The notes under the pieces: model-generated
Seen by the model: only the letters and a program-made list of their open reading frames with translations
What the model was told of the DNA's origin: nothing
Database searches by the model: none
Translations under genes and position numbers: made by a program
Shown: positions 1 to 12,096 of the stretch, in pieces
How positions within the stretch are numbered: position 1 is the first letter of the stretch
How the letters are laid out: each line of letters opens with the position of its first letter
Source of the DNA: Candidatus Didemnitutus sp.
Lineage (GTDB): Bacteria > Verrucomicrobiota > Verrucomicrobiia > Opitutales > Opitutaceae
NCBI GenBank assembly: GCA_035545955.1
Contig: DASZXI010000045.1
Coordinates: 26,053-58,052, forward strand
Length of the DNA: 32,000 nt
Direction: 5' to 3'

Positions 1-1785
1 CAGCTCGGCGCGACCGTCGGCGGTCGGCGTGGCGTTGAGCGCCACGGTGATGCGGCGCTGTTCGCCGGCGGACTGGAGTCCGTTGAGAAAGATTTCCTGA
101 AACGCGTGGGCGAGGCTGGTGCGGTTGCAGCGCAGCATCACGGGCGGCAGGTCGCTCTTCACCTCCAGTTCGGCGGTGCCGCCCGCGTAGGCCCGCGATT
201 TTTCGAAGCTCGACTGCAGGATCTCGTCGAGCGGGGCGAGTTCGGACGCCGGCTGATCCGAGCGGTCCAGCAGCAGCATCTGGTCGGTGAAGCGCTGGAT
301 GCGCTGTGTTTCGCGCGCGAGCGCGGTCTTGAGCGACTCGCGGAAATCGGGATCGTTGATCTCGGCGTCGAAGAGCTGCTCATGCGTCGTGAGCGGCACG
401 AGCGAATTGCGGATCTCGTGGGCGAAGCGGCGCGCGATGAGCGAGATCAGTTTGAGATTCGAAGACTCAATTTCCGCGCGCTGGGCGGCGCGAATGCGCG
501 TGAAATCCTCGAGCAGCAGCATCGCGGTCGGCGGCACGCGCTCGGCGGCGGTGCGGAGCGGGATGACCGTGGCGCGAAACACCGTGCCGGCGGCCTCATG
601 GAAAAACGGCTCGACGGTGGCGCCGAGGTCGATCACCTCGTGCACCCGCGCCGAGATGGCCGGCGGCAGATCGCCCAGCTCGATCGGGCGACCCTGCTCC
701 GTATGAAGAAATCCGGCGAGCGCGCGATTGGTGTAGAGGACGCGTCCGCCCGCGCCGGCCACGAGCGCGCCGACGGTGAGGCCGTCGAGCACGCTGGCGA
801 ACAGGTGATGGCTGCCGACGAGCTGGTGGTGGAGCCAGGAATTCTTGATCGCGAGTCCAAGTTCCTCGAGCAGGTGAAACACCAGCAGAAGTTCGTCGTC
901 CGAAAAATCCCCGCCCATGATGCGGCCGCCGAGCACGGCGACACCGAGCGTGCGCTCGCGATCGTTGACCGGGATCGCGATGCGTCCGCCGAGCACATTG
1001 AACTCGTGGATCACGCGATCGTCGAACAGCGGCGGCATGCTGCCCGTGGGCGCGCGGAGAATCTGCGGGTTGACCGTCAGTTGGCGGCCGAGACCGCTCT
1101 TGCGCGACAGCGAGAACGACTCGACGAGGTCGGCCGGAAATCCGATCGACGCCGCGCACGGCAGATGGGAGCCATCGACTGCGGGTGCGCCCGGCAGCGC
1201 CTCGGGCGCGGGCGGTTCGAGGAAAATCGCGATGCGGGCGATGCCCACGACCTCGCGCAGTTTCAGGATGAAGTGTTGCGTGAGGGAGCGCGTGTCGAGC
1301 GAGTAGCCGAGCACTTGCGAGAAATCGCGCAGCACCTCGAGGGCGGAAGACAACGCGGCCGCGCGCGGATTGAGCGTCGCCCGGGCCGGGGCATACGGAT
1401 CCTCGCCGGGGGGCTTCGCCGGCGCGCGTCGGGCGAAGCGTTCGAGCATGGCGGTCAACGTTGGCGCCTCGATCGGCTGGAACAGGACCAGGTCGACCCC
1501 AAGATTGAGCAGTTTCTGCTGGGCATCGGTGCCCGTGCCGGTGGCAAGCAGCACGACCAGGGGCAGGGTGGGGGCGATGATTCGGGCCGCGGAAACCTCG
1601 TCACAAAATGAGGCATCCACCTTGGCCGGAGCGAAAAGGCACACTTCGAAGGCCCCGGCCACCAAGGCTCCCCGGGCGTCCGCAATCCGGTTGCGGTGAC
1701 GGACCATGAAGTCGGCGGCGGAAGACAGTGCCGTTTGGAGCGGTAACGGCGGGTTTTCTTCAGCAATTAGGAGCAGCCGGGTCAC
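1..1785 (-). CDS. Sensor histidine kinase (receiver-like N-terminus + GAF + PAS-like + HisKA/HATPase_c); C-terminus runs off the window at base 1
   Basis: Not in the ORF track because the frame is open at position 1. Hand translation of the reverse strand is continuous from GTG (1785-1783; V/M-TRLLLIAEENPPLPLQ...) to base 1 (...ITVALNATPTADGRAEL). The H-box 'LISLIARRFAHEIRNSLVPL' is encoded by the reverse complement of ~391-456. GAF-like stretch: '...IPVNDRERTLGVAVLGGRIMGGDFSDDELLLVFHLLEELGLAIKNSWL'. The + strand ORF 106..1611 is its Arg/Ala-rich antisense shadow. The start codon choice (GTG 1785) is tentative. Confidence 0.85.
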   Translation of the reverse strand, partial: MTRLLLIAEENPPLPLQTALSSAADFMVRHRNRIADARGALVAGAFEVCLFAPAKVDASFCDEVSAARIIAPTLPLVVLLATGTGTDAQQKLLNLGVDLVLFQPIEAPTLTAMLERFARRAPAKPPGEDPYAPARATLNPRAAALSSALEVLRDFSQVLGYSLDTRSLTQHFILKLREVVGIARIAIFLEPPAPEALPGAPAVDGSHLPCAASIGFPADLVESFSLSRKSGLGRQLTVNPQILRAPTGSMPPLFDDRVIHEFNVLGGRIAIPVNDRERTLGVAVLGGRIMGGDFSDDELLLVFHLLEELGLAIKNSWLHHQLVGSHHLFASVLDGLTVGALVAGAGGRVLYTNRALAGFLHTEQGRPIELGDLPPAISARVHEVIDLGATVEPFFHEAAGTVFRATVIPLRTAAERVPPTAMLLLEDFTRIRAAQRAEIESSNLKLISLIARRFAHEIRNSLVPLTTHEQLFDAEINDPDFRESLKTALARETQRIQRFTDQMLLLDRSDQPASELAPLDEILQSSFEKSRAYAGGTAELEVKSDLPPVMLRCNRTSLAHAFQEIFLNGLQSAGEQRRITVALNATPTADGRAEL

Positions 1786-1941: not shown

Positions 1942-3639
1942 ATGATCGCAGACTCCACGCCTGTTCAGGCGGGTCAACTACGCACCGATTTCGTCAGCTT
2001 CCCGAACCGCACGGGATTGCGGTTGGCGGCCTGCCTCGACCACACGGGCGACCTGACCGGAAGGCCCTGGGTCATCGTCGCCCCCAAATACGGGGAGACC
2101 AAGAAAAACAACCTCCAGTTGTCCTACTACCTCGCCAGCAACGGCCTGAATGTGCTGCGGTTCGATCAGACCAATCATTTGGGCGAAAGCGAGGGTCGGA
2201 TGCAGGATTTCAGCCTGCCGGGCGCGGTGGATGACATCCTGGGCTGCCTCGATTTTCTCGGATCGCAGTACCAGGCGGCAGGTGCGGTATTGATTTCCAA
2301 CAGTTTGTCGGCGCGCTGCGCCTACCGCGCGGCGGCAAGAGACTCCCGGATCACGCGCGTGATCAGCGTGGTGGGCGTCGTCAACATGCAGTCGACGCTG
2401 CGCGAGGTCTACAAGGACGACATTTTTGGCACCTACCTGGCGGGCCGGCACTGGGGCCTCACCGACATCCTGGGCTTCGACATCAACGGTGAGATCTTCC
2501 TCGGCACCGCGGTCGAGGCGGGAATGCACGATCTCGCCGGTACGATCACGGACATCGCGCGCATCCGGGTTCCGATGGTATACTTCTTCGCGATGAACGA
2601 CACGTGGGTCACCTACGACGATGTGTTGCGCGCGACGGAGAATCAACCGATGTGCCGGCTCATCGCGGTTGAAGGGGCGATGCACGAGGTGCGCGAAAAT
2701 CCGCGCGCGGCCGAGGGCGTGTTCCGGCAGATCATCTGGGCGTGCCGGCACGACACCGCGTATCCCGGCGACGAACAGGCGCGCCTCGAAATACCCGACA
2801 TGAAACTGATCCTGGCGCAGAATCGCCAGGAGCGGGAGCGCATGCGCCGATCGGAGGCGCCGGCGGAATCGGAGCACACGTTTTGGTCGGGCTACCTCGA
2901 GAAATACAGCGTGCTCGAGAAATCGGAGGACTATCATCAGTACATCGCGTTGCTCGGCCGACTGTGCGCGTTTCGTCCGGGCGCACTCGTGCTCGACGCC
3001 GGCTGCGGCAATGGAATGTTCGGGCTCTGGGCGCTGCGCGAGGCCCTGACGCAGCGGCGTGTGGTGACGGCGCGCGATCTGCCGGCGATGTACGTGGGCA
3101 TCGATCTCACCGAGCGTGGACTCGGTGACGCCGTGGGCCATCATCGCGGCGCGCTGCGCAAGGGCGCGGGCGAGCTCGCGCACCGGGCATCTCCGGGGAC
3201 CGGCTATCTGCGTTTTGATTTCAACGATCTGCTCGACGAGCGTGGCGGCCCGCGGCTGCCGTTTGCCGATCAGACTTTCGACGTGGTCTGCTGCAGCCTG
3301 GTGCTTTCGTATCTCAAGCGGCCCCAGGCGTTGTTGAAGGAACTCGCGCGCGTGGCGAAACCGGGCGCCGTCCTGGTCACCTCGAGCATGAAGCCGCATT
3401 GTGACATGTCGGTGATCTACCGCGATTTCATGGCGCAGCAGGTGACTTCGGAGGAACTCGAGGCGGCGCGCGATCTGCTGCGCGCGGCGAGCAAGATCCG
3501 ATTGAAGGAGGAAGTAGGCCATTATGCGTTCTTCTCGGACACCGAACTTGCCGCGTTGGCCAGCGAGGCCGGATTCAGCGTGCAGGAGAGCTTTCACTCG
3601 CTCGGTAATCAGGCGATCGTGATCAAGGCGCAGAAGTGA
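1942..3639 (+). CDS. Two-domain enzyme: LuxD-family acyl transferase/thioesterase (alpha/beta hydrolase) fused to a class I SAM-dependent methyltransferase
   Basis: 565-aa ORF. The N-terminal ~290 aa match LuxD as I recall it: 'SNSLSARCAY' (LuxD 'AASLSARVAY'), 'VVGVVNMQSTLREV' (LuxD 'AVGVVNLRDTLEKA'), 'FFAMNDTWV', 'EGAMHEVRENP'. The C-terminal ~250 aa carry methyltransferase motifs: 'VLDAGCGNGMFG' (motif I), 'YVGIDLTE', 'FDVVCCSLVLSYL', 'LARVAKPGAVLVTSS'. Confidence 0.85.
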   Translation: MIADSTPVQAGQLRTDFVSFPNRTGLRLAACLDHTGDLTGRPWVIVAPKYGETKKNNLQLSYYLASNGLNVLRFDQTNHLGESEGRMQDFSLPGAVDDILGCLDFLGSQYQAAGAVLISNSLSARCAYRAAARDSRITRVISVVGVVNMQSTLREVYKDDIFGTYLAGRHWGLTDILGFDINGEIFLGTAVEAGMHDLAGTITDIARIRVPMVYFFAMNDTWVTYDDVLRATENQPMCRLIAVEGAMHEVRENPRAAEGVFRQIIWACRHDTAYPGDEQARLEIPDMKLILAQNRQERERMRRSEAPAESEHTFWSGYLEKYSVLEKSEDYHQYIALLGRLCAFRPGALVLDAGCGNGMFGLWALREALTQRRVVTARDLPAMYVGIDLTERGLGDAVGHHRGALRKGAGELAHRASPGTGYLRFDFNDLLDERGGPRLPFADQTFDVVCCSLVLSYLKRPQALLKELARVAKPGAVLVTSSMKPHCDMSVIYRDFMAQQVTSEELEAARDLLRAASKIRLKEEVGHYAFFSDTELAALASEAGFSVQESFHSLGNQAIVIKAQK

Positions 3640-5735
3640 CGCGGTACCTCATCGTCTCCTCGTTCCTGAACTTCCTCGCGGCGGGCATGCTCGCCTTCGC
3701 GGTGGTGGTGCGCGGACGCAAGGACAGCATCAACGTGCGTTTCGGCGTGTTCGCGCTGGCGATCGGCAGCTGGTCGGCGGGCTACCTGCTCTGGCAGATT
3801 TCCGAGGACGCCGTGCGGGCACTGTTTTTCACCCGGCTGCTGATGTTCTTCGCGTACTTCGTGCCGACGACCTTCCTCCATTTTATCGTGGAGCTTTGCG
3901 GCGAGCGGAAGCGCACCTGGGTGCGGATCGCGTACGCGGTTTCAGCCGTGTTCGCCGGGCTCAACTTCACCTCGCTCATGGTCGACCACATCGAACCGGT
4001 GCGGGGCTTTCCCTACTGGCCGATCGCGGGCGCGTGCTACTGGCTTTACCTGTTGTTCTTTGCCGCCTGCACCGTTTACGCGGGCTGGCTGCTGGTTTCC
4101 AATCTGCGCACCGCCACCGGCGGACGCGCCGTGCAGCTGCGTAACATCCTGATCGCCTCGATCGTCGGGTTCGGCGGCGGTGCCACGAACTTCCCGCTCT
4201 GGTACCGGATTCCGCTGCCGCCGCTCGGCATGCCGCTGATTTTCCTCTACCTCGTGATCATGGCGCACGCGGTGTCGCGCTACCAGTTGCCGCTGGTGAC
4301 GTATGATTTCATGCACGCGGCGGTGCACGTGGGCTTCAGCGTCACCATCGCCGTCATCTATCTGGTGGTGCTCGCGGCGATCTCGCCGTTCATCGACTAC
4401 CCGCTGACGCCCGAAACCCTGCTCACCCAGTTCATGCTGTGCGTGGTGGTCTGCCTGTTTTTCATCTGGGCGGTGCCGCGCATGAACCGCGCGGCCAACC
4501 GGCTGATGGCGGAAACGTACCTGCGCCGGCGCAATACCCAACAGATGAACTTGAAGGAGCTGAGCCGACGCATTGCCGCGCTCGGCAGCGAGCAGGAAAT
4601 CTTCGAGAACTCCGTGCGCGAGATCACCCGCGCCTTCGGCCTCGGGGCCGCGGCGGTCTACGCCCGCAGCGAATTTGACCACGACTATCAGCTGCGGGCC
4701 ATGCACGGCTGGTCGCGCTGCCCGCCGGCGCTGCCGCTGAGCTCGCCGCTCGCCCGCGTGTTCGCCCAGCGCATGGCGCCACTGCTGATCGACGGCACCG
4801 AGCTCGAGCTCGGCCCCGCCGTGGCGGGAGAGATCGAACAATTCCGGCGTGAACTCGCCTTCGAGGCCGCGTTTCCGGTGGCGTCCGACGACTTCCTGTC
4901 CGGCCTGCTCCTCCTTGGCCGGCGCGAGGGCGGCGAGCGGTACACGGAAGCCGAGCTGAGCCTGCTCGAGTCCACCTGTCTGCAGATTGCCGTGACGCTG
5001 CGCGCGCGCCAGCTCGAGCGCCGCGCGAGCCAGACCGAAAAACTGATTTCGCTCGGCACGCTCGCCGCCGGCCTCGCGCACGAGCTGCGCAATCCGCTGA
5101 CCTCGGTGCAAACCTTCACGGCGCTGCTCAAGGAAAAGCATCCCGATCCCGAGGCGTTGCACGAGTTCAGCAGCGTGGTGCTCCGCGACGTCAACCGGAT
5201 CACCAGCATCGTCGAAAACGTGTCGGCCTTTGCCGAGAGCAACATCGTCGCGATGACCTCGGTGCATCTGCCCGACGTGCTGCAGACAGTGGCGGACATC
5301 GTGCGGCCGGAGCTGACCCGCACCGGCGTGAAACTGGAGGTGCCGGTCGTCACCGTGCCGCCGGTGCGCGGCAACAACAGCCAGCTTTTGCAGGTGTTCC
5401 TGAATCTCACGCAGAACGCGATCCAGGCGCTCGACGGCAAGCCGGGCGGTCGCATTTCCTTCGGACTCGACACACGCGTCACCGACGTGCCGCAGCCCCT
5501 GCTCTTCGTCAGCGTGGCGGACAATGGTCCCGGCATCGATCCCGACGTCCTGCCGCGGATTTTCGAGCCGTTCACCACGACGAAGGCGACGGGTGCGCGC
5601 ATCGGCAAGCACGGCATGGGGCTCGGCTTGGCGATCGTGAAGCGCATCATCCAGCATCATCACGGCGACATCGACGTGACCAGCGCGGTCGGAGGAGGCA
5701 CGACCTTCCGCGTGCAACTGCCGCTTTTCGCGTGA
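3636..5735 (+). CDS. Membrane-embedded sensor histidine kinase (about nine N-terminal TM helices, GAF, HisKA, HATPase_c)
   Basis: 699-aa ORF. The GTG start overlaps the upstream TGA (GTGA, 3636-3639). The first ~300 aa are almost entirely hydrophobic helices with short loops, resembling the histidine-kinase N-terminal 7TM type. GAF-like: '...FLSGLLLLGRREGGERYTEAELSLLESTCLQIAV'. H-box: 'LAAGLAHELRNPLTSV'. ATPase motifs: 'LNLTQNAIQA', 'DNGPGIDPDVLPRIFEPFTTTK', 'GMGLGLAIV'. Confidence 0.9.
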   Translation: MTRYLIVSSFLNFLAAGMLAFAVVVRGRKDSINVRFGVFALAIGSWSAGYLLWQISEDAVRALFFTRLLMFFAYFVPTTFLHFIVELCGERKRTWVRIAYAVSAVFAGLNFTSLMVDHIEPVRGFPYWPIAGACYWLYLLFFAACTVYAGWLLVSNLRTATGGRAVQLRNILIASIVGFGGGATNFPLWYRIPLPPLGMPLIFLYLVIMAHAVSRYQLPLVTYDFMHAAVHVGFSVTIAVIYLVVLAAISPFIDYPLTPETLLTQFMLCVVVCLFFIWAVPRMNRAANRLMAETYLRRRNTQQMNLKELSRRIAALGSEQEIFENSVREITRAFGLGAAAVYARSEFDHDYQLRAMHGWSRCPPALPLSSPLARVFAQRMAPLLIDGTELELGPAVAGEIEQFRRELAFEAAFPVASDDFLSGLLLLGRREGGERYTEAELSLLESTCLQIAVTLRARQLERRASQTEKLISLGTLAAGLAHELRNPLTSVQTFTALLKEKHPDPEALHEFSSVVLRDVNRITSIVENVSAFAESNIVAMTSVHLPDVLQTVADIVRPELTRTGVKLEVPVVTVPPVRGNNSQLLQVFLNLTQNAIQALDGKPGGRISFGLDTRVTDVPQPLLFVSVADNGPGIDPDVLPRIFEPFTTTKATGARIGKHGMGLGLAIVKRIIQHHHGDIDVTSAVGGGTTFRVQLPLFA

Positions 5736-5804
5736 GCAATTTGTTCGCTTCCCGCGCCGTCCTCGCGCAATGACTTCGAGCGCTTCCGCCACCCCTGTTG
5801 CCCA

Positions 5805-7160
5805 ATGACATTGCTCGCCCCCAACACCATCACGATGGACGGGCCGGCGGCGCTGCGTGCCCTCGCGCGGGCGTTCGCGCATCTCGGCGACTTCGATCGT
5901 TTCGTGGCGGGATTGCAGGCGGCGCTCGACCGGTCGTCGCTGTTTGCCCGGACCACGCTGGCGATCGATCGCGGGATCGCGGGCGAGCGTTTTCCCGCCG
6001 GCACGATGAGCCTGCCGTTGGGGGACGGCGTCCATCCGGGCGGACACCTGCAGGCGGTCGCCGGAGGAGAGAACCGGCAATTCGGAGCCGAGGACCTGCA
6101 CCTGCTGGCCGGACTCGCGGATTTTCTTTCGTCCGCGCTGGCCGCCTCGGCGCAGATGCAGGCGGCGGGTCAAGCGCGGGAGCTGCTCCGTTTCCTGCTG
6201 AATCAGGCGCCGGTCGGCCTAGCCGCCTTCAACGCCGACCGCACGCCGGCGGTGGCCAACGATCTGGCGCGACGGTGGCTGGGCGACGCCGCGCTGCCGA
6301 TCGAGGATTTCGAAAAGGCCACGGGCGGCTTTCATCTGCGCGCCGGCGGAAAACTCATCTATGGCGAGGCCCGGCGCATGCCGGCGCCGTGCGAAGGCCT
6401 GTGGATGGTGGCACTGCACGACCTCACGGCCGACCAGGCCCGGCTGCTGGAACTCATCCGGCGCGAAACCTATCGCGCCCTCGCGCAAAAGGGAAAATTC
6501 GGCTTCGCCCTGATCGAGGGCACCGCCATGGCGGACGGCGTCCTGCGGCGCCTGCCTGATCTGCGGGCGGCGTTGACGCTCGGCGAAACCGGCGGGCCGT
6601 ACGATGCGCACCGCCTCGGCATCGTTTTCAGTGAAGTCAACGGACTCGCCCTGCGCGCGCGTCTCAGAAAAATGCGGTCGGTCTTCGCCGGAGTCGAAGG
6701 CTTGCGCGTCGGCTACGCGGAACTCGGCCGCGGCGGATCGACGCCGGAAAGCCTGCTCGAGGCGGCGCTGCAGGCGTCGGCGCCCTACGACGACGCCGTG
6801 CGCTCGGCGGTGCTGGTGCACGACGAGAATCCCGCCGTCACCGACACCTTTGCGCTGCTGTTGGGGCGCGACTTCAATGTGGTCAAGAGCTCCCAGGCCG
6901 CGCGCACGCGCGAGCTGCTCGAGCGCGGAATGTACGAGGGATTCGTCGCCGAGCTGGAGTCGCGCAATGGACCCGACGGTGCCGAACTGATGAAGTTTGC
7001 GCGCGCCAAGCTGCCGGGCATCCGTCCCTTTTTTCTCACCGCGCGCCATCCCGCACTCGATGGCAAGGGCGAGACCGGCAAGGAGGACGCCGTGGTGATC
7101 GAAAAGCCGTTCGACGTCTCTGCCGTCACGCAGATCGTCCGGGAAAAGCTGGCGGATTGA
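5805..7160 (+). CDS. Multidomain signalling protein: GAF-like + PAS-like + degenerate GGDEF-like + C-terminal receiver-like domain
   Basis: 451-aa ORF, 69 bp downstream of the kinase. PAS-like: 'LLRFLLNQAPVGLAAFNADRTPAVANDLARRWLG'. The GGDEF-like core has its signature replaced: 'GGPYDAHRLGIVFSEV' where R-Y-G-G-D/E-E-F is expected, followed by 'VGYAELGRGGSTPESLLEAALQA'. Receiver-like tail: 'AVLVHDENPAV...PFFLTARH...VIEKPFD'. Domain calls are by eye only. Confidence 0.75.
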   Translation: MTLLAPNTITMDGPAALRALARAFAHLGDFDRFVAGLQAALDRSSLFARTTLAIDRGIAGERFPAGTMSLPLGDGVHPGGHLQAVAGGENRQFGAEDLHLLAGLADFLSSALAASAQMQAAGQARELLRFLLNQAPVGLAAFNADRTPAVANDLARRWLGDAALPIEDFEKATGGFHLRAGGKLIYGEARRMPAPCEGLWMVALHDLTADQARLLELIRRETYRALAQKGKFGFALIEGTAMADGVLRRLPDLRAALTLGETGGPYDAHRLGIVFSEVNGLALRARLRKMRSVFAGVEGLRVGYAELGRGGSTPESLLEAALQASAPYDDAVRSAVLVHDENPAVTDTFALLLGRDFNVVKSSQAARTRELLERGMYEGFVAELESRNGPDGAELMKFARAKLPGIRPFFLTARHPALDGKGETGKEDAVVIEKPFDVSAVTQIVREKLAD

Positions 7161-7437: not shown

Positions 7438-8421
7438 TCATTGCGCCGTCGCGCCGCGCGAAAAGATTTCGCTGATGATGTCCTCGAGCGGCACGTCCTG
7501 GATCGTGATGTCCTCGACCGCTCCCTGATTGAGAATCTGCTGGCAGACGTCCGTGATTCGCTCGCTCGGCACATGCAGCGTGATCTCGCCGTCGTCACCG
7601 GTGCGCGCCGTGCCGTGGGCCGGTTTCCAATCGGGCGGAAACGCATTGTCGCCCGGACGGAACTTGATGATCCGCTGGCGCGCGCCCGCGCCGGCGATGC
7701 GGTCGAGGGCGCCGTCGTAGATCTTGCGGCCATGATCGATCACGATCACGCGTTCGCACAGTTGCGAAATGTCGGCCATGTAGTGGCTCGTGAGCAGGAT
7801 GGTCGTGCGGTGCCGGCGGTTGTAGTCGCGCAGAAAATCGCGCACGGCCTTCTGCGAGATGACGTCGAGTCCGATTGTGGGTTCGTCGAGAAAGAGGACC
7901 CGCGGTCGATGCAGGAGCGCCGCGATCAGTTCCATCTTCATGCGCTCGCCGAGCGACAACTCGCGCACCTGCACGTTGAGTTTGTGGCGAACTCCGAGCA
8001 GATCGACCAGCTCGTCGAGCGTCGCCTGGTATTGCGCCGGATCGAGGTCGTAGATGGCGCGCAGCAGATAGAACGACTCGAGGGCCGGCAGGTCCCACCA
8101 CAGCTGGTTCTTCTGTCCGAGCACGAGGGCGAACAGGCGCCGATAGGCATTTTCGCGTTTGGAGGGATCGAAGCCGGCGACGCGCGCCTGGCCACTGGTC
8201 GGGTAGATCAGGCCCGAGAGCATCTTGAGCGTGGTGGTCTTGCCGGCGCCGTTCGGGCCGAGAAAGCCGACGAATTCGCCCTCCTTGATCGAAAACGAAA
8301 CATTGTCCGCCGCGCGGGTCTCCTCGAAGTCGCGCTTGAAGAGCCCTTGCAGGCCGCCCCAGAACCCGGGCTTCTTCTTGTAGGTGCGGAAGACGCGGGT
8401 GAGGTTTTCGACTTCGATCAT
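7438..8421 (-). CDS. ABC transporter ATP-binding protein (ABC-2/'uncharacterized transport system' type with C-terminal extension)
   Basis: Walker A 'GPNGAGKTT', signature 'LSLGERMKM', Walker B 'VLFLDEPT', H-loop 'LTSHYM'. The ORF track starts at 8448 (MFPCSLGAR-). The second Met (MIEVENLTRVF, ATG at 8421) fits the usual N-terminus of this family better. Confidence 0.9.
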   Translation of the reverse strand: MIEVENLTRVFRTYKKKPGFWGGLQGLFKRDFEETRAADNVSFSIKEGEFVGFLGPNGAGKTTTLKMLSGLIYPTSGQARVAGFDPSKRENAYRRLFALVLGQKNQLWWDLPALESFYLLRAIYDLDPAQYQATLDELVDLLGVRHKLNVQVRELSLGERMKMELIAALLHRPRVLFLDEPTIGLDVISQKAVRDFLRDYNRRHRTTILLTSHYMADISQLCERVIVIDHGRKIYDGALDRIAGAGARQRIIKFRPGDNAFPPDWKPAHGTARTGDDGEITLHVPSERITDVCQQILNQGAVEDITIQDVPLEDIISEIFSRGATAQ

Positions 8422-8580
8422 GCGGGCGCCGAGTGAACACGGAAACAACCCGGATGCAAACCCGACGCGCCGCCAAGCCGGCCTTCAGGGGGCCATAAGG
8501 CGGTTTACAATCCTCCTACGAGGCTCAAGAACCGTCCCGTTGAGCCGATCTTCCGGGCAGCTCCGGAAGCCATCCCTCTC

Positions 8581-11500
8581 GTGTCAGCAGTTCGTCATAG
8601 CCTCGACCGGCATTTGTCCGGCCGAAGCGCCATCATCTTTGCCTGGGTCGCGGGCCTGACCCTCGGGATAGCTCTGCGTGCCCAGCCGGCGCCTCCCCAT
8701 ACGTCGGGGCCGATCCTGTCGGCCGGCGAGATTTGGACGGTCCCGGAACCGCTGCGGAAGACGAGCTTCCCGGTGAAAATGGAGTTCACCGCGAACTATT
8801 ACGACGCGGCGTGGCATCTCCTGTGGGGCGAGGATGGCGGTGGCTGTTTTTTCCTTCCGATTACCGCCAATCCCCTGGCCATCCGAAGCGGCCAGCGGGT
8901 GCGCGTCGAGGGCACGGTGGTGCCGGCGGACGGACTCGATGGGCCGCAACTCAAGATCACCGTGCTGCAACGCGATGCCTGGGCCGAACCGCGCCCGACC
9001 GCGGGACGCGTCGACGATGTGGCCGCGCTCGATCCGCGCTGGGTCGTCGTGACCGGCTACGTCGTTGGCCAGCAGGAGGTCGATTCGACGCATTTTCTGA
9101 TCACCGTGCTGAGTGATGGGCGGCTCATTAACGCCCGCGTCCAGGTCGGAGCCAACGACCCGGTGCCGCAGTTGATCGGCGCGCGCGTCCAGCTCTACGG
9201 CGTCTACATCGCCAATCGCGACCCGGCCGGAGCGTTGCACGACATCAACCTCTGGGTTCCGCGACGGCAGGACGTTCGCCTGCTCACGTGGTTGTCCGAT
9301 GACGCCCGGTTTCTGCTGCCGCGGACGGCGCTGGCCTCCCTCGCGGAATCGGCCGCCGCGCCGTGGATTCGCGCGATCGGCGAGGTCAAGGCGACGGAGC
9401 CCGGGAAATCAATCACGCTGCGGGACGACACCGGCCAGATCACAGTCGCAACCGCGCAGCTGGGTGATTTTCCGGCCGGCGCCAAGGTCGAGGTCGTCGG
9501 CCACCCGGTGAGCACGAATGCCGGCTGGGTGCTGGGCGATCCCATTTTCCGGCGGAAGGAGGATGGAGCCGGCGAGAAGGCGCTCGCGTCGACGACGGAC
9601 GTCCTTTCTCGGCTCCGACTCGCCCAACAAGTTCTCGCTCTCCCCAGTGCGGACGCCGAACGGGGCTTTCCCGTGACGCTCCGCGGCGTCGTCACGTGGG
9701 TGGACCGCCGGGCCGACATTTTCTACCTGCAGGACTCGAGCGGGGGCGTCCGGGTGCGCTGCTTCAATGTCGCCTCGCCGCCGCCGATCGGAGCGTCCGT
9801 GTCGATGACCGGTTTGACCGTGAGCGGCTCGTTTGCTCCCGAGGTCCAGATGCGCGACTTTCATGCGGTCAGTCCGCTGCCGCCGCCTCCGGCGCATCCA
9901 CTCTCGCTGGAACAGGCATTGACCGGCGCGTACGAAAGCCAATGGGTCGAGATGCGGTCCTATGTGCACGCGGTCGAGGACGAAGGTGACTGGACCCGCC
10001 TGGACTTGACGGCCGAGACCGGCGAGTTCAGCGCCTATGCGCCAGCCGAGAAGTCCCTGCATGCGTTGGTGGGGGCCGTTGTCCGGCTGACCGGAGTATG
10101 CATGGCCGAGGTGAACGGCAACCGCGAGTTGACCGGCATCAGGTTGTGGGTGCCGAGTCGAGACTCTGTGAGCGTTGACGATACGCCGGCGGCCGATCCC
10201 TTCGGCAGCGCGGTCCGATTCATCGCGAGTCTGCGTCAATTCCGAGGGTCCGGCGAGGCCGGGCGTCGGGTGCACGTCGCCGGTTGCGTGCAAATGACCG
10301 GATCGAAGCACTATTTTCATCTGCAGGACGCGAGTGGCGGCATCCTGGTGCTGACGCGCGATCCGCGTCCGCTGGCTGTCGGCGACTGGGTCGAGGTGGT
10401 CGGATTTCCCGGACGCAGCGGCAGCCGCCCGGTGTTGCGCGAGGCGGTGTGGCGGTCGATGCCGGCGGGAGAACCGATCGACGCCGCGACGATCACGAAC
10501 ACGGCGATCATCAGCACGGAGCTGGATACCCGCCTCGTCCGGGTGGAGGCGACGCTGCGACAGGTTGGATTGGAGCCCGACCGGACCAAGCTCGCGCTCA
10601 ATGCCGATGGAATCAATTTCGACGCGGTGCTCGACGGCGGGCATCCCGATCCCGTGCCGCCGCCGGGCAGCCGGTTGCGGGTGACTGGAATCTATCTGGT
10701 CGAATACGACGAGGACCATCAACCGCGTGGTTTCCGCCTGCAGCTGCGCTCGCCGGACGACGTCGCCGTGCTGGCGCCGCCGCTCTGGTGGACGCCCGGC
10801 CGCGTGATGCTGGTGGCCGCGGGATTCGCCTGCTGCACCGTGCTCGGATTCGTGTGGGTGACGCTGTTGCGGCGTCGCGTGCGGCGGCAGACCGAACAGA
10901 TCCGTCTGCAAATGGAAAAGGAGGCGCGCATGCAGTCCGAACTCGAACGCTCGTCGCGTCTCGATTCGCTCGGCGTGCTGGCCGGTGGCATCGCGCATGA
11001 TTTCAACAACCTTCTGACGGCGATCATGGGCAACATCGGGCTCCTCCGGCTCGATCCGGGCGTGATGAGTTCCGCGAGCGAACAGGTGCTGGCGGCGGAG
11101 CGCGCCGCCAAGCGGGCCGGCGACGTCACCCAGCAACTCCTCACCTTTGCCAAGGGCGGCGATCCGGTGCGCTCGATCGTCGACCTGCCGGAACTTGTGC
11201 GCGAGGCGGCGGGTTTCGCCCGTCACGGGTCGAGCGTGCGCGTGGAATTCAATTTTCCCGCCGACCTGCCGCCGGCGGACGTCGACTCCAGCCAGATCAG
11301 CCGCGTGGTGCACAACCTCGTGCTCAACTCGGTGCAGGCCATGGCCACGGGCGGCGTGGTGCAGATATCGCTCGCGGCCTTCCACCTGGCGGCGGGCGAG
11401 GTGCCTCCGCTGATGGCGGGACGCTATCTCCGTCTGACGATTGCCGACAATGGTCCGGGGATTCCCGCGGCGCGCCTGTCGCGCATCTTCGACCCCTATT

Positions 11501-12096
11501 TCTCGACCAAGGCGAAGGGAAGCGGACTCGGACTCGCGACCGCGCACTCGATCGTGAAGAAACACCAGGGCACCATTGCCGTGGATTCAACCCTCGGGCG
11601 TGGCACGACCTTCCACATCTGGTTGCCGGCCGCGGTGCGACCGGCGACGGCCACCCGGGTGCCCACGGCGGATCCGGGCTTCGGCGTTCACGCCCGCATT
11701 CTTTTCATGGATGACGAGGAGGTCCTGCGCAATCTCGTCCAGAGTTTCCTCGCCCGATCCGGCCACGAAGGCACGCTGGTCGCCGATGGCGCCGCGGCCG
11801 TTGCGGCCTACGCCGAGGCGCGGGCGCAGGGGCGCGGCTACCAAGTGGTGATCCTCGACCTCACCGTGCCGGGCGGCATGGGCGGGCGGGACGCCGTCGC
11901 GGAGTTGCGTCGGATCGATCCGGAGGTGTGCGCGGTGGCCTCGAGCGGCTATTCCAACGATCCGGTCATGGCCAATCATCGCGCCTACGGATTCGCCGCG
12001 GTGATGCCGAAGCCTTACGACTTCGAGACTTTCAACCGCGTCATCGGCCGACTTCAGCTCTCGCGCAAGTCCGCGTCCATCGCACCGGCGGTCTGA
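8581..12096 (+). CDS. Hybrid sensor histidine kinase/response regulator with a ~700-aa periplasmic domain built from repeated OB-like modules
   Basis: 1171-aa ORF with a GTG start. Signal/anchor 'RSAIIFAWVAGLTLGIALRAQ'; second TM 'VMLVAAGFACCTVLGFVWVTLL'. H-box 'LAGGIAHDFNNLLTAIMGN'. ATPase motifs: 'DNGPGIPAARLSRIFDPYFSTK', 'GSGLGLATAHSIV'. Receiver: 'RILFMDDEEV...VVILDLTVPGGMGG...ASSGY...MPKPYD'. Confidence 0.9.
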   Translation: MSAVRHSLDRHLSGRSAIIFAWVAGLTLGIALRAQPAPPHTSGPILSAGEIWTVPEPLRKTSFPVKMEFTANYYDAAWHLLWGEDGGGCFFLPITANPLAIRSGQRVRVEGTVVPADGLDGPQLKITVLQRDAWAEPRPTAGRVDDVAALDPRWVVVTGYVVGQQEVDSTHFLITVLSDGRLINARVQVGANDPVPQLIGARVQLYGVYIANRDPAGALHDINLWVPRRQDVRLLTWLSDDARFLLPRTALASLAESAAAPWIRAIGEVKATEPGKSITLRDDTGQITVATAQLGDFPAGAKVEVVGHPVSTNAGWVLGDPIFRRKEDGAGEKALASTTDVLSRLRLAQQVLALPSADAERGFPVTLRGVVTWVDRRADIFYLQDSSGGVRVRCFNVASPPPIGASVSMTGLTVSGSFAPEVQMRDFHAVSPLPPPPAHPLSLEQALTGAYESQWVEMRSYVHAVEDEGDWTRLDLTAETGEFSAYAPAEKSLHALVGAVVRLTGVCMAEVNGNRELTGIRLWVPSRDSVSVDDTPAADPFGSAVRFIASLRQFRGSGEAGRRVHVAGCVQMTGSKHYFHLQDASGGILVLTRDPRPLAVGDWVEVVGFPGRSGSRPVLREAVWRSMPAGEPIDAATITNTAIISTELDTRLVRVEATLRQVGLEPDRTKLALNADGINFDAVLDGGHPDPVPPPGSRLRVTGIYLVEYDEDHQPRGFRLQLRSPDDVAVLAPPLWWTPGRVMLVAAGFACCTVLGFVWVTLLRRRVRRQTEQIRLQMEKEARMQSELERSSRLDSLGVLAGGIAHDFNNLLTAIMGNIGLLRLDPGVMSSASEQVLAAERAAKRAGDVTQQLLTFAKGGDPVRSIVDLPELVREAAGFARHGSSVRVEFNFPADLPPADVDSSQISRVVHNLVLNSVQAMATGGVVQISLAAFHLAAGEVPPLMAGRYLRLTIADNGPGIPAARLSRIFDPYFSTKAKGSGLGLATAHSIVKKHQGTIAVDSTLGRGTTFHIWLPAAVRPATATRVPTADPGFGVHARILFMDDEEVLRNLVQSFLARSGHEGTLVADGAAAVAAYAEARAQGRGYQVVILDLTVPGGMGGRDAVAELRRIDPEVCAVASSGYSNDPVMANHRAYGFAAVMPKPYDFETFNRVIGRLQLSRKSASIAPAV

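Follow-up and report, generated by a model that had tools for sequence, protein, structure and literature searches.

The stretch of DNA analysed here, hereafter the window, comprises 32,000 nucleotides of a Candidatus Didemnitutus contig (DASZXI010000045.1) and carries, at positions 1942-3639 of the plus strand, an open reading frame (ORF) with an ATG start that encodes a protein of 565 amino acids (aa), in which a LuxD-type acyl hydrolase/transferase is joined to a class I S-adenosylmethionine (SAM)-dependent methyltransferase (ORF, Pfam and NCBIfam analyses). Directly 3' of this fusion gene, at 3636-5735 of the same strand, lies the gene of a sensor histidine kinase of 699 aa with HisKA_7TM, GAF, HisKA and HATPase_c domains (Pfam), whose GTG start overlaps the stop codon of the fusion gene by 4 nucleotides (GTGA), an arrangement by which both genes are translationally coupled. 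The former is proposed here as a signal synthase and the latter as its receptor. At 100% identity, the fusion protein corresponds to an entry named "methyltransferase domain-containing protein" from a metagenome-assembled genome of Candidatus Didemnitutus (MAG; Opitutaceae, Verrucomicrobiota), and lies exactly where a preliminary description of this DNA, made from the letters alone, had placed a single polypeptide with both domains. Moreover, all six peptide strings quoted in that description were recovered from the translation, with SNSLSAR (residues 119-125), AMNDTWV (217-223), and GAMHEVREN (245-253) in the N-terminal half, and VLDAGCGNG (350-358), FDVVCCSLVLSYL (446-458), and AKPGAVLVTSS (472-482) in the C-terminal half. 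Profile searches bore out the division of the chain, with Acyl_transf_2 at residues 58-253 and the methyltransferase families at residues 332-549, and these domain assignments are far above chance. An AlphaFold2 model of the fusion protein, with 16 homologues as input, reached a predicted local distance difference test score (pLDDT) of 80 and a predicted template-modelling score (pTM) of 0.71.

The N-terminal half is an alpha/beta-hydrolase domain of approximately residues 14-270 (1981-2751, plus strand), delimited by the sequence alignment to the LuxD structure 1THT, by Foldseek, and by the catalytic triad. It matched the Pfam family Acyl_transf_2 (PF02273, the LuxD family) with 89.6 bits against a gathering score of 20.3 (E 2.9e-25), compared with an E value of 3.7e-5 for Hydrolase_4. 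The closest solved structure by sequence was LuxD of Vibrio harveyi (PDB 1THT; E 5e-20, query residues 45-264 against chain residues 39-257), and chains B and A of the same entry were the top Foldseek matches of the AlphaFold2 model (E 2e-15, target TM-score 0.82). The LuxD-type character that had been assigned by eye was thus recovered by both sequence and fold. The triad Ser121 (codon 2302-2304), Asp220 (2599-2601), and His248 (2683-2685), all on the plus strand, aligns with Ser114, Asp211, and His241 of LuxD, as had been suspected, and the LuxD strings given for that comparison (AASLSAR, ANNDDWV, and GSSHDLGEN) do occur in 1THT at the matching positions, with SLSAR, NDxWV, and HxxxEN as motifs common to both proteins. 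Across 16 homologues, down to 49% identity, the three residues were invariant (alignment A1).

Beyond family, fold, and triad, the fusion protein departs from V. harveyi LuxD in several respects: its identity to that protein is only about 20-27%, its scores remain under the NCBIfam equivalog cut-offs (89.3 bits against 420 for NF052253, and 90.3 bits against 529 for NF010127), and it is fused to a methyltransferase, whereby the fatty acid would not be passed to the LuxE/LuxC reductase. Orthology with the LuxD of lux operons was rejected on these cut-offs and on the neighbouring genes, which encode histidine kinases, an ATP-binding cassette (ABC) ATPase, PNPase, peptide-binding proteins, and PTS enzyme I; neither lux genes (luxCABE) nor biotin genes were found in the window.

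The C-terminal half (residues 332-549; 2935-3588, plus strand; Pfam, models, and Foldseek) scored above the Pfam cut-offs of five methyltransferase families, namely Methyltransf_23 (56 bits against 27), Methyltransf_11 (45.9 against 21.2), Methyltransf_31, Methyltransf_12, and Methyltransf_25. It carries motif I, VLDAGCGNG (2989-3015, plus strand), preceded by a family-specific helical lead-in, FWSGYLEKY (2881-2907, plus strand), and the acidic residue and GxGxG glycines of motif I (D352, G354, and G356) hardly vary among 151 family representatives. A Rossmann-like seven-strand fold was seen in the AlphaFold2 models of both the full-length protein and the methyltransferase alone; the latter gave 940 Foldseek matches at E <= 0.001, of which the best 50 were nearly all class I methyltransferases. 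Families, motif, and fold matches therefore agree with the preliminary description of this half as a class I enzyme of the small-molecule type. In the profile search of the PDB with the methyltransferase alone and in Foldseek, the nearest enzymes were LahSB, which methylates carboxyl oxygen, MitM and PmtA, which are N-methyltransferases, RebM, which methylates sugar oxygen, and Coq5, a C-methyltransferase, with TM-scores of about 0.5.

Regarding named methyltransferase families, BioC was rejected (TIGR02072, 32.7 bits against a cut-off of 184.95; PRK10258, 25.8 bits against 342), as were the mycobacterial fatty-acid O-methyltransferase Mtf2 (NF045825, 15.7 bits against 400) and UbiE/MenG, whose models scored far under their curated cut-offs. 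The comparison with BioC and with mycobacterial fatty-acid O-methyltransferases that had been suggested for this protein thus gave no kinship at the equivalog level; neither Pfam nor Foldseek gave it a CheR-like character.

How widespread such a fusion might be had been left as a question, which was approached by searching 1.84 billion cluster representatives (clusters at 50% identity) exhaustively with a profile. The family comprises 491 clusters at E <= 1e-30, with named sources in Verrucomicrobiota, Omnitrophota, WOR-1, and Elusimicrobiota; more than 100 full-length homologues with 49-88% identity come from MAGs of Opitutaceae/Opitutales and from metagenomes, and all of them have both domains. 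Among the best 150 of the 491 clusters, on which the counts of architecture and triad rest, 120 representatives hold the complete two-domain module, and because these stem from independent assemblies the fusion is not an assembly artefact. We regard its two-domain architecture as virtually certain. The Ser-Asp-His triad is kept in 97 of these 120 full-length representatives, and SAM motif I is nearly invariant among them; the fusion is thus a real, ancient, and widespread module, and its family is a large one that is under selection. As had been surmised, no characterised enzyme with exactly this fusion appeared in the literature searched, nor did the fusion have a specific name in the databases, and a tblastn search for plasmid-borne copies in PLSDB returned single-domain matches only.

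Only 28 of the 120 full-length representatives stand alone like the window protein, the other 92 having an N-terminal extension, which in a sample of 45 contained PilZ (26), PAS (about nine), receiver (REC; seven), or SRPBCC domains (START-like, lipid-binding; five). N-terminal PilZ, REC-PAS-PilZ, or SRPBCC/Polyketide_cyc domains were found, among others, in P0133, P0138, P0141, P0156, P0174, P0189, and P0197. The PilZ and REC-PAS extensions suggest control of the enzyme by cyclic di-GMP (c-di-GMP) or by phosphorylation, and together with the SRPBCC fusions they would fit an enzyme whose output of a lipid-like compound is regulated. In 23 of the 120 representatives the triad is lost (e.g., GDH, NDQ, or DQE in its place) and the SAM motif is intact, as in P0197, P0233, P0214, P0226, P0241, and P0254; such proteins are mostly multidomain REC-PAS-PilZ forms of more than 1100 aa, in which the hydrolase domain may have a binding role without catalysis.

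Conservation of gene order further links the fusion to the kinase. A HisKA_7TM-GAF kinase gene lies directly 3' of the fusion gene in all ten loci with an intact triad that were examined, and in nine of them the genes overlap by 4 nucleotides. This is the case in Opitutales (the window, L001/L002, L003, L004, L005, L034, and L035), in an Omnitrophota locus where the fusion has an SRPBCC-LuxD-methyltransferase form (L033), and in an unplaced locus with a REC-PAS-PilZ-LuxD-methyltransferase form, in which an NtrC-type regulator follows (L036); in the WOR-1 locus (L037) the genes are separated by a gap of 38 nucleotides. In a locus with a degenerate triad (L039), a HisKA_7TM protein is encoded two genes downstream of the fusion gene, and a further contig (L038) was too short to reveal neighbours. 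The kinases align end to end, including the seven-helix region, with E values of 8e-67 (Omnitrophota against the window) and 1e-71 (WOR-1 against the window). They are orthologous across phyla, seven-helix region included, and the pair has therefore been inherited together. No other clue to function is as strong as this pairing of fusion and kinase, which is shared by at least four phyla.

Some of these loci hold additional genes of related kinds. In the Omnitrophota locus, the gene of a membrane methyltransferase of the ICMT/PEMT family stands directly before a second HisKA_7TM-GAF kinase gene (L033:318-3154), another methyl-ester-forming enzyme beside this sensor type. Immediately upstream of the WOR-1 fusion gene, a stand-alone HisKA_7TM protein of 308 aa without a kinase domain is encoded (L037:6006-6932), and in L039 a PilZ domain fused to a TENA/PqqC or haem-oxygenase-like iron enzyme (5239-6573) is encoded between the degenerate-triad fusion gene and that of the HisKA_7TM protein.

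The third gene of the Opitutales operon (5805-7160, plus strand) encodes a signalling protein of 451 aa with GAF-like, PAS-like, and, at the C-terminus, receiver-like domains, which has no Pfam match and in a profile search of the PDB resembled receiver domains (FleR, E 5e-7) and, weakly, GAF domains. Orthologues follow the kinase in L001, L003, L004, L005, and L034. In five of six orthologues the phospho-acceptor Asp of the receiver is replaced by Glu, Asp being found only in L001 (alignment A2), and the Lys-Pro-Phe of beta5 is invariant; this protein may be a phosphorylation-independent pseudo-receiver. On the other side of the fusion gene, a divergent intergenic region of 156 nucleotides (1786-1941), with a similar gap of about 150 nucleotides in L003 and L004, presumably carries the promoters of the synthase operon and of a second histidine kinase gene (1-1785, minus strand). 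Of this divergent kinase, recognised from its open frame and a weak HisKA match, the window holds the N-terminal 595 aa, the C-terminus being cut off; its features are a receiver-like N-terminus, regions resembling GAF/PAS, and an H-box, and in L003, L004, L005, L034, and L035 an orthologue of 602-678 aa, with HATPase_c, is encoded at the matching divergent site. On the plus strand, a 501-aa ORF at 106-1611 is an antisense shadow of this kinase gene, in sequence of 65% G+C that is prone to spurious ORFs.

Convergent to the operon lies the gene of an ABC-transporter ATPase of 336 aa without an adjacent permease gene (7438-8448, minus strand; Pfam ABC_tran), and an ABC ATPase of 324-327 aa is encoded in the same place in L003, L004, L005, and L034. 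The window also holds the gene of a large hybrid histidine kinase (8581-12096, plus strand; 1171 aa with HisKA, HATPase_c, and receiver domains), in which a long N-terminal region with weak OB-fold matches (tRNA_anti-codon and Rep_fac-A_3) forms an unusual putative sensor region. The remaining genes of the window are housekeeping genes, encoding PNPase, an ABC exporter, an M28 peptidase, two peptide-binding proteins, PTS enzyme I, and a GHMP kinase. In addition, the loci of L001, L003, L004, and L034 include a FadL/Toluene_X outer-membrane channel for hydrophobic compounds, which suggests that a hydrophobic molecule crosses the outer membrane; this channel and a REC-HisKA-HATPase protein of related genomes map beyond the left edge of the window.

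The arrangement recalls the Phc system of Ralstonia, in which PhcB makes methyl 3-hydroxymyristate or methyl 3-hydroxypalmitate, sensed by PhcS (PMC8578825, PMC6989110), and an alignment of the fusion protein with PhcB had been suggested in the preliminary description. For comparison, Ralstonia-type phcBSRQ genes were found through the published GMI1000 primers (PMC5481312, Table 2): primer phcB-L2 matched 25 loci among metagenome contigs, which were screened for the remaining primers, and L015 proved to hold complete phcBSRQ. It encodes PhcB (2959-4353; 464 aa, with two primer-encoded peptides), whose stop at 4353 directly abuts the PhcS start at 4354, PhcS (447 aa), PhcR (REC-HisKA-HATPase), and PhcQ (REC and an unknown region). 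In this PhcB, Pfam recognised a methyltransferase domain only, with no Acyl_transf_2/LuxD-like domain; against the fusion protein, BLASTP gave an E value of 3.1, and hhalign aligned the generic Rossmann core alone, with 9% probability. Because domain content, BLASTP, and hhalign all disagree, the fusion protein is not a member of the PhcB family, and the likeness shrinks to the methyltransferase core. The window kinase, in turn, has the catalytic core in common with PhcS and not the sensor domain, the sensor region of PhcS not being HisKA_7TM, and no PhcA-type LysR regulator is encoded in the window. What speaks for orthology is confined to the system level, i.e., a SAM-methyltransferase protein followed by a membrane kinase, with gene pairs that abut in both cases, and a PhcR-like protein in related loci, the REC-HisKA-HATPase protein of Opitutaceae aligning end to end with PhcR (E 2e-21). 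We give orthology with PhcB practically no chance; the resemblance would seem to be one of system design, not of homology.

Approximately residues 1-285 of the L015 PhcB match no Pfam family, and a PilZ-type beta-barrel suspected by eye in its first 90 residues gained no support from Pfam or from hhalign against the PilZ domains of the fusion family. The 20-mer of primer phcB-R1 had exact matches among genome contigs only at L006:214-233 and L007:2606-2625, two contigs of one archaeal (Methanomethylophilaceae) MAG; no phcB-like ORF was present on L007, the one of the two contigs that was examined, and a sequence repeated in that MAG or a chance match is probable.

Other signalling systems share the same outline. 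In Xanthomonas RpfF/RpfC, Vibrio CqsA/CqsS, and Legionella LqsA/LqsS, a synthase acting on fatty-acyl thioesters is encoded beside a multi-pass membrane histidine kinase, RpfF being a thioesterase/dehydratase on acyl-ACP (PMC7912708). The synthases of those systems are crotonase and pyridoxal-phosphate enzymes, whereas here an alpha/beta-hydrolase is combined with a methyltransferase; the sensor domains also differ. The pairing that marks lipophilic-autoinducer synthases and their kinases, a class defined by function and not by homology, is found here as conserved adjacency to a polytopic kinase. In this context, systems that pair the synthase of a fatty-acyl-derived signal with a membrane kinase are already known; none described so far uses this enzyme or this sensor domain. 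The chemistry proposed for the fusion also has a counterpart in engineered pathways to fatty-acid methyl esters, where an acyl-ACP thioesterase is followed by SAM-dependent carboxyl methylation (PMC4823748); those pathways combine two unrelated proteins artificially (with Mycobacterium FAMT or Drosophila JHAMT), whereas the fusion is natural.

Taken together, we propose that the ORF at 1942-3639 encodes a cytoplasmic two-domain enzyme whose LuxD-type Ser-Asp-His domain would load a fatty acyl group from acyl-ACP (or acyl-CoA) onto Ser121 and then release it, and whose methyltransferase domain would methylate what is released, in the simplest case on its carboxylate, to give a membrane-permeant fatty-acid methyl ester, the product that the preliminary description had envisaged and one that is plausible for this combination of domains. 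The proposed synthase is encoded by the first gene of the operon and the HisKA_7TM-GAF kinase, with translational coupling, by the second; the kinase would sense the lipophilic product within the membrane through its HisKA_7TM domain. Signalling might then proceed via the GAF-PAS-REC protein, the divergent second kinase, and, in related genomes, the REC-HisKA-HATPase protein built like PhcR. Such a system would work like the autoinducer pairs PhcB/PhcS, RpfF/RpfC, or CqsA/CqsS, with a synthase and a sensor domain unrelated to theirs. Substrate, methyl acceptor, and the role of the product as kinase ligand are what we infer in this scheme, and for the whole chain, a signal synthase/sensor-kinase pair whose signal would likely be a fatty-acid methyl ester, we put the chances tentatively at a little under even.

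Several points weigh against this proposal. The adjacency of the genes fits equally well with a kinase that regulates the enzyme instead of responding to what it makes. Fusions to PilZ and REC, moreover, are more usual in output enzymes under regulation than in classical autoinducer synthases, and the Opitutales locus shows no evident DNA-binding response regulator. About 19% of the representatives have no nucleophile, and there the hydrolase domain must serve another role. The methyl acceptor could be read neither from sequence (PDB profile) nor from fold (Foldseek), both of which returned generic small-molecule methyltransferases only, and the nearest of these span O-, N-, and C-methylating enzymes. 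LuxD-type enzymes are able to transfer acyl groups to acceptors besides water, and given this the methylated species need not be a free fatty acid. Furthermore, cluster look-ups for a cultured host gave MAG or metagenome sources alone.

Some of these points are taken up by a different reading of the same chemistry, in which the product is no signal and the enzyme serves remodelling of envelope lipids or of the acyl pool, or detoxification, with the seven-helix kinase sensing membrane state and controlling expression or activity of the enzyme, as in lipid homeostasis. Polytopic kinases can sense membrane properties, as DesK does, and the PilZ and REC-PAS fusions of other phyla, typical of post-translationally regulated output enzymes, would agree with such a role, as would the NtrC-type regulator after the kinase in L036. 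Nonetheless, known autoinducer synthase/receptor pairs are marked by just such a tight translational coupling of enzyme and kinase, which here extends over at least four phyla, the FadL-type channel hints at hydrophobic traffic over the outer membrane, and the operon contains no other lipid-biosynthesis genes, for which reasons we consider this reading unlikely, if still a serious one. The acceptor might also be something other than a fatty-acid carboxylate: the acyl group could pass to an amino acid, amine, or alcohol, or a hydroxy acid could be released, and O-, N-, or C-methylation would then give, for instance, an N-acyl amino-acid methyl ester or a methoxy or N-methyl lipid, which could still be a signal. 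This is in line with LuxD being formally an acyltransferase with an acyl-Ser intermediate ("acyl transferase" in its Pfam and NCBIfam names) and with the mixed chemistry of the closest methyltransferases (PmtA, MitM, Coq5, RebM, and LahSB). Yet the loci read (L001-L005 and L033-L037) share no conserved gene whose product would supply an acceptor, and the order of hydrolase then methyltransferase, with no third catalytic domain, favours the simplest two-step route, which makes another acceptor rather improbable.

The two domains might, alternatively, oppose each other as a methyltransferase and a methyl-esterase, in a reversible cycle like the adaptation by CheR/CheB, here directed at the neighbouring kinase, or like the masking and unmasking of an acyl-ACP carboxylate by BioC/BioH. 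Serine alpha/beta-hydrolases do include methyl-esterases, such as BioH, some homologues bear the automatic JGI name "pimeloyl-ACP methyl ester carboxylesterase", and the fusion always stands beside a sensor kinase; the hydrolase is specifically LuxD-like, however, by the difference between its Acyl_transf_2 and Hydrolase_4 scores and by 1THT as top match in sequence and fold, and with a BioC score of 32.7 bits against 185, no biotin genes nearby, and a methyltransferase that is not CheR-like, we judge such a cycle highly improbable.

In brief, should the synthase/receptor proposal be true, the fusion and its HisKA_7TM kinase would form a candidate quorum-sensing-type system, the first for Verrucomicrobiota, Omnitrophota, and Saganbacteria, for which none was described in the literature searched. 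It would also supply a ligand class for HisKA_7TM, a sensor domain for which the literature found names no ligand (PMC5847659). A natural route from acyl-ACP to fatty-acid methyl ester within a single polypeptide would be what biodiesel engineering assembles from two enzymes (PMC4823748). The family is widespread in understudied phyla. To our knowledge, fatty-acid methyl-ester signalling is so far known only from Ralstonia Phc, and it would here have arisen independently with a different enzyme, by convergent evolution. A wider proposition, which we hold as possible though doubtful, is that Opitutales, Omnitrophota, WOR-1/Saganbacteria, Elusimicrobiota, and other poorly studied phyla have in this pair an unrecognised cell-to-cell (or lipid second-messenger) system, with an autoinducer of the methyl-ester type made straight from acyl-ACP, the orphan HisKA_7TM as receptor, and production gated in many lineages by c-di-GMP (PilZ) or phosphorylation (REC); the PilZ- and REC-fused relatives would then tie c-di-GMP and two-component signalling to the production of a lipid signal.

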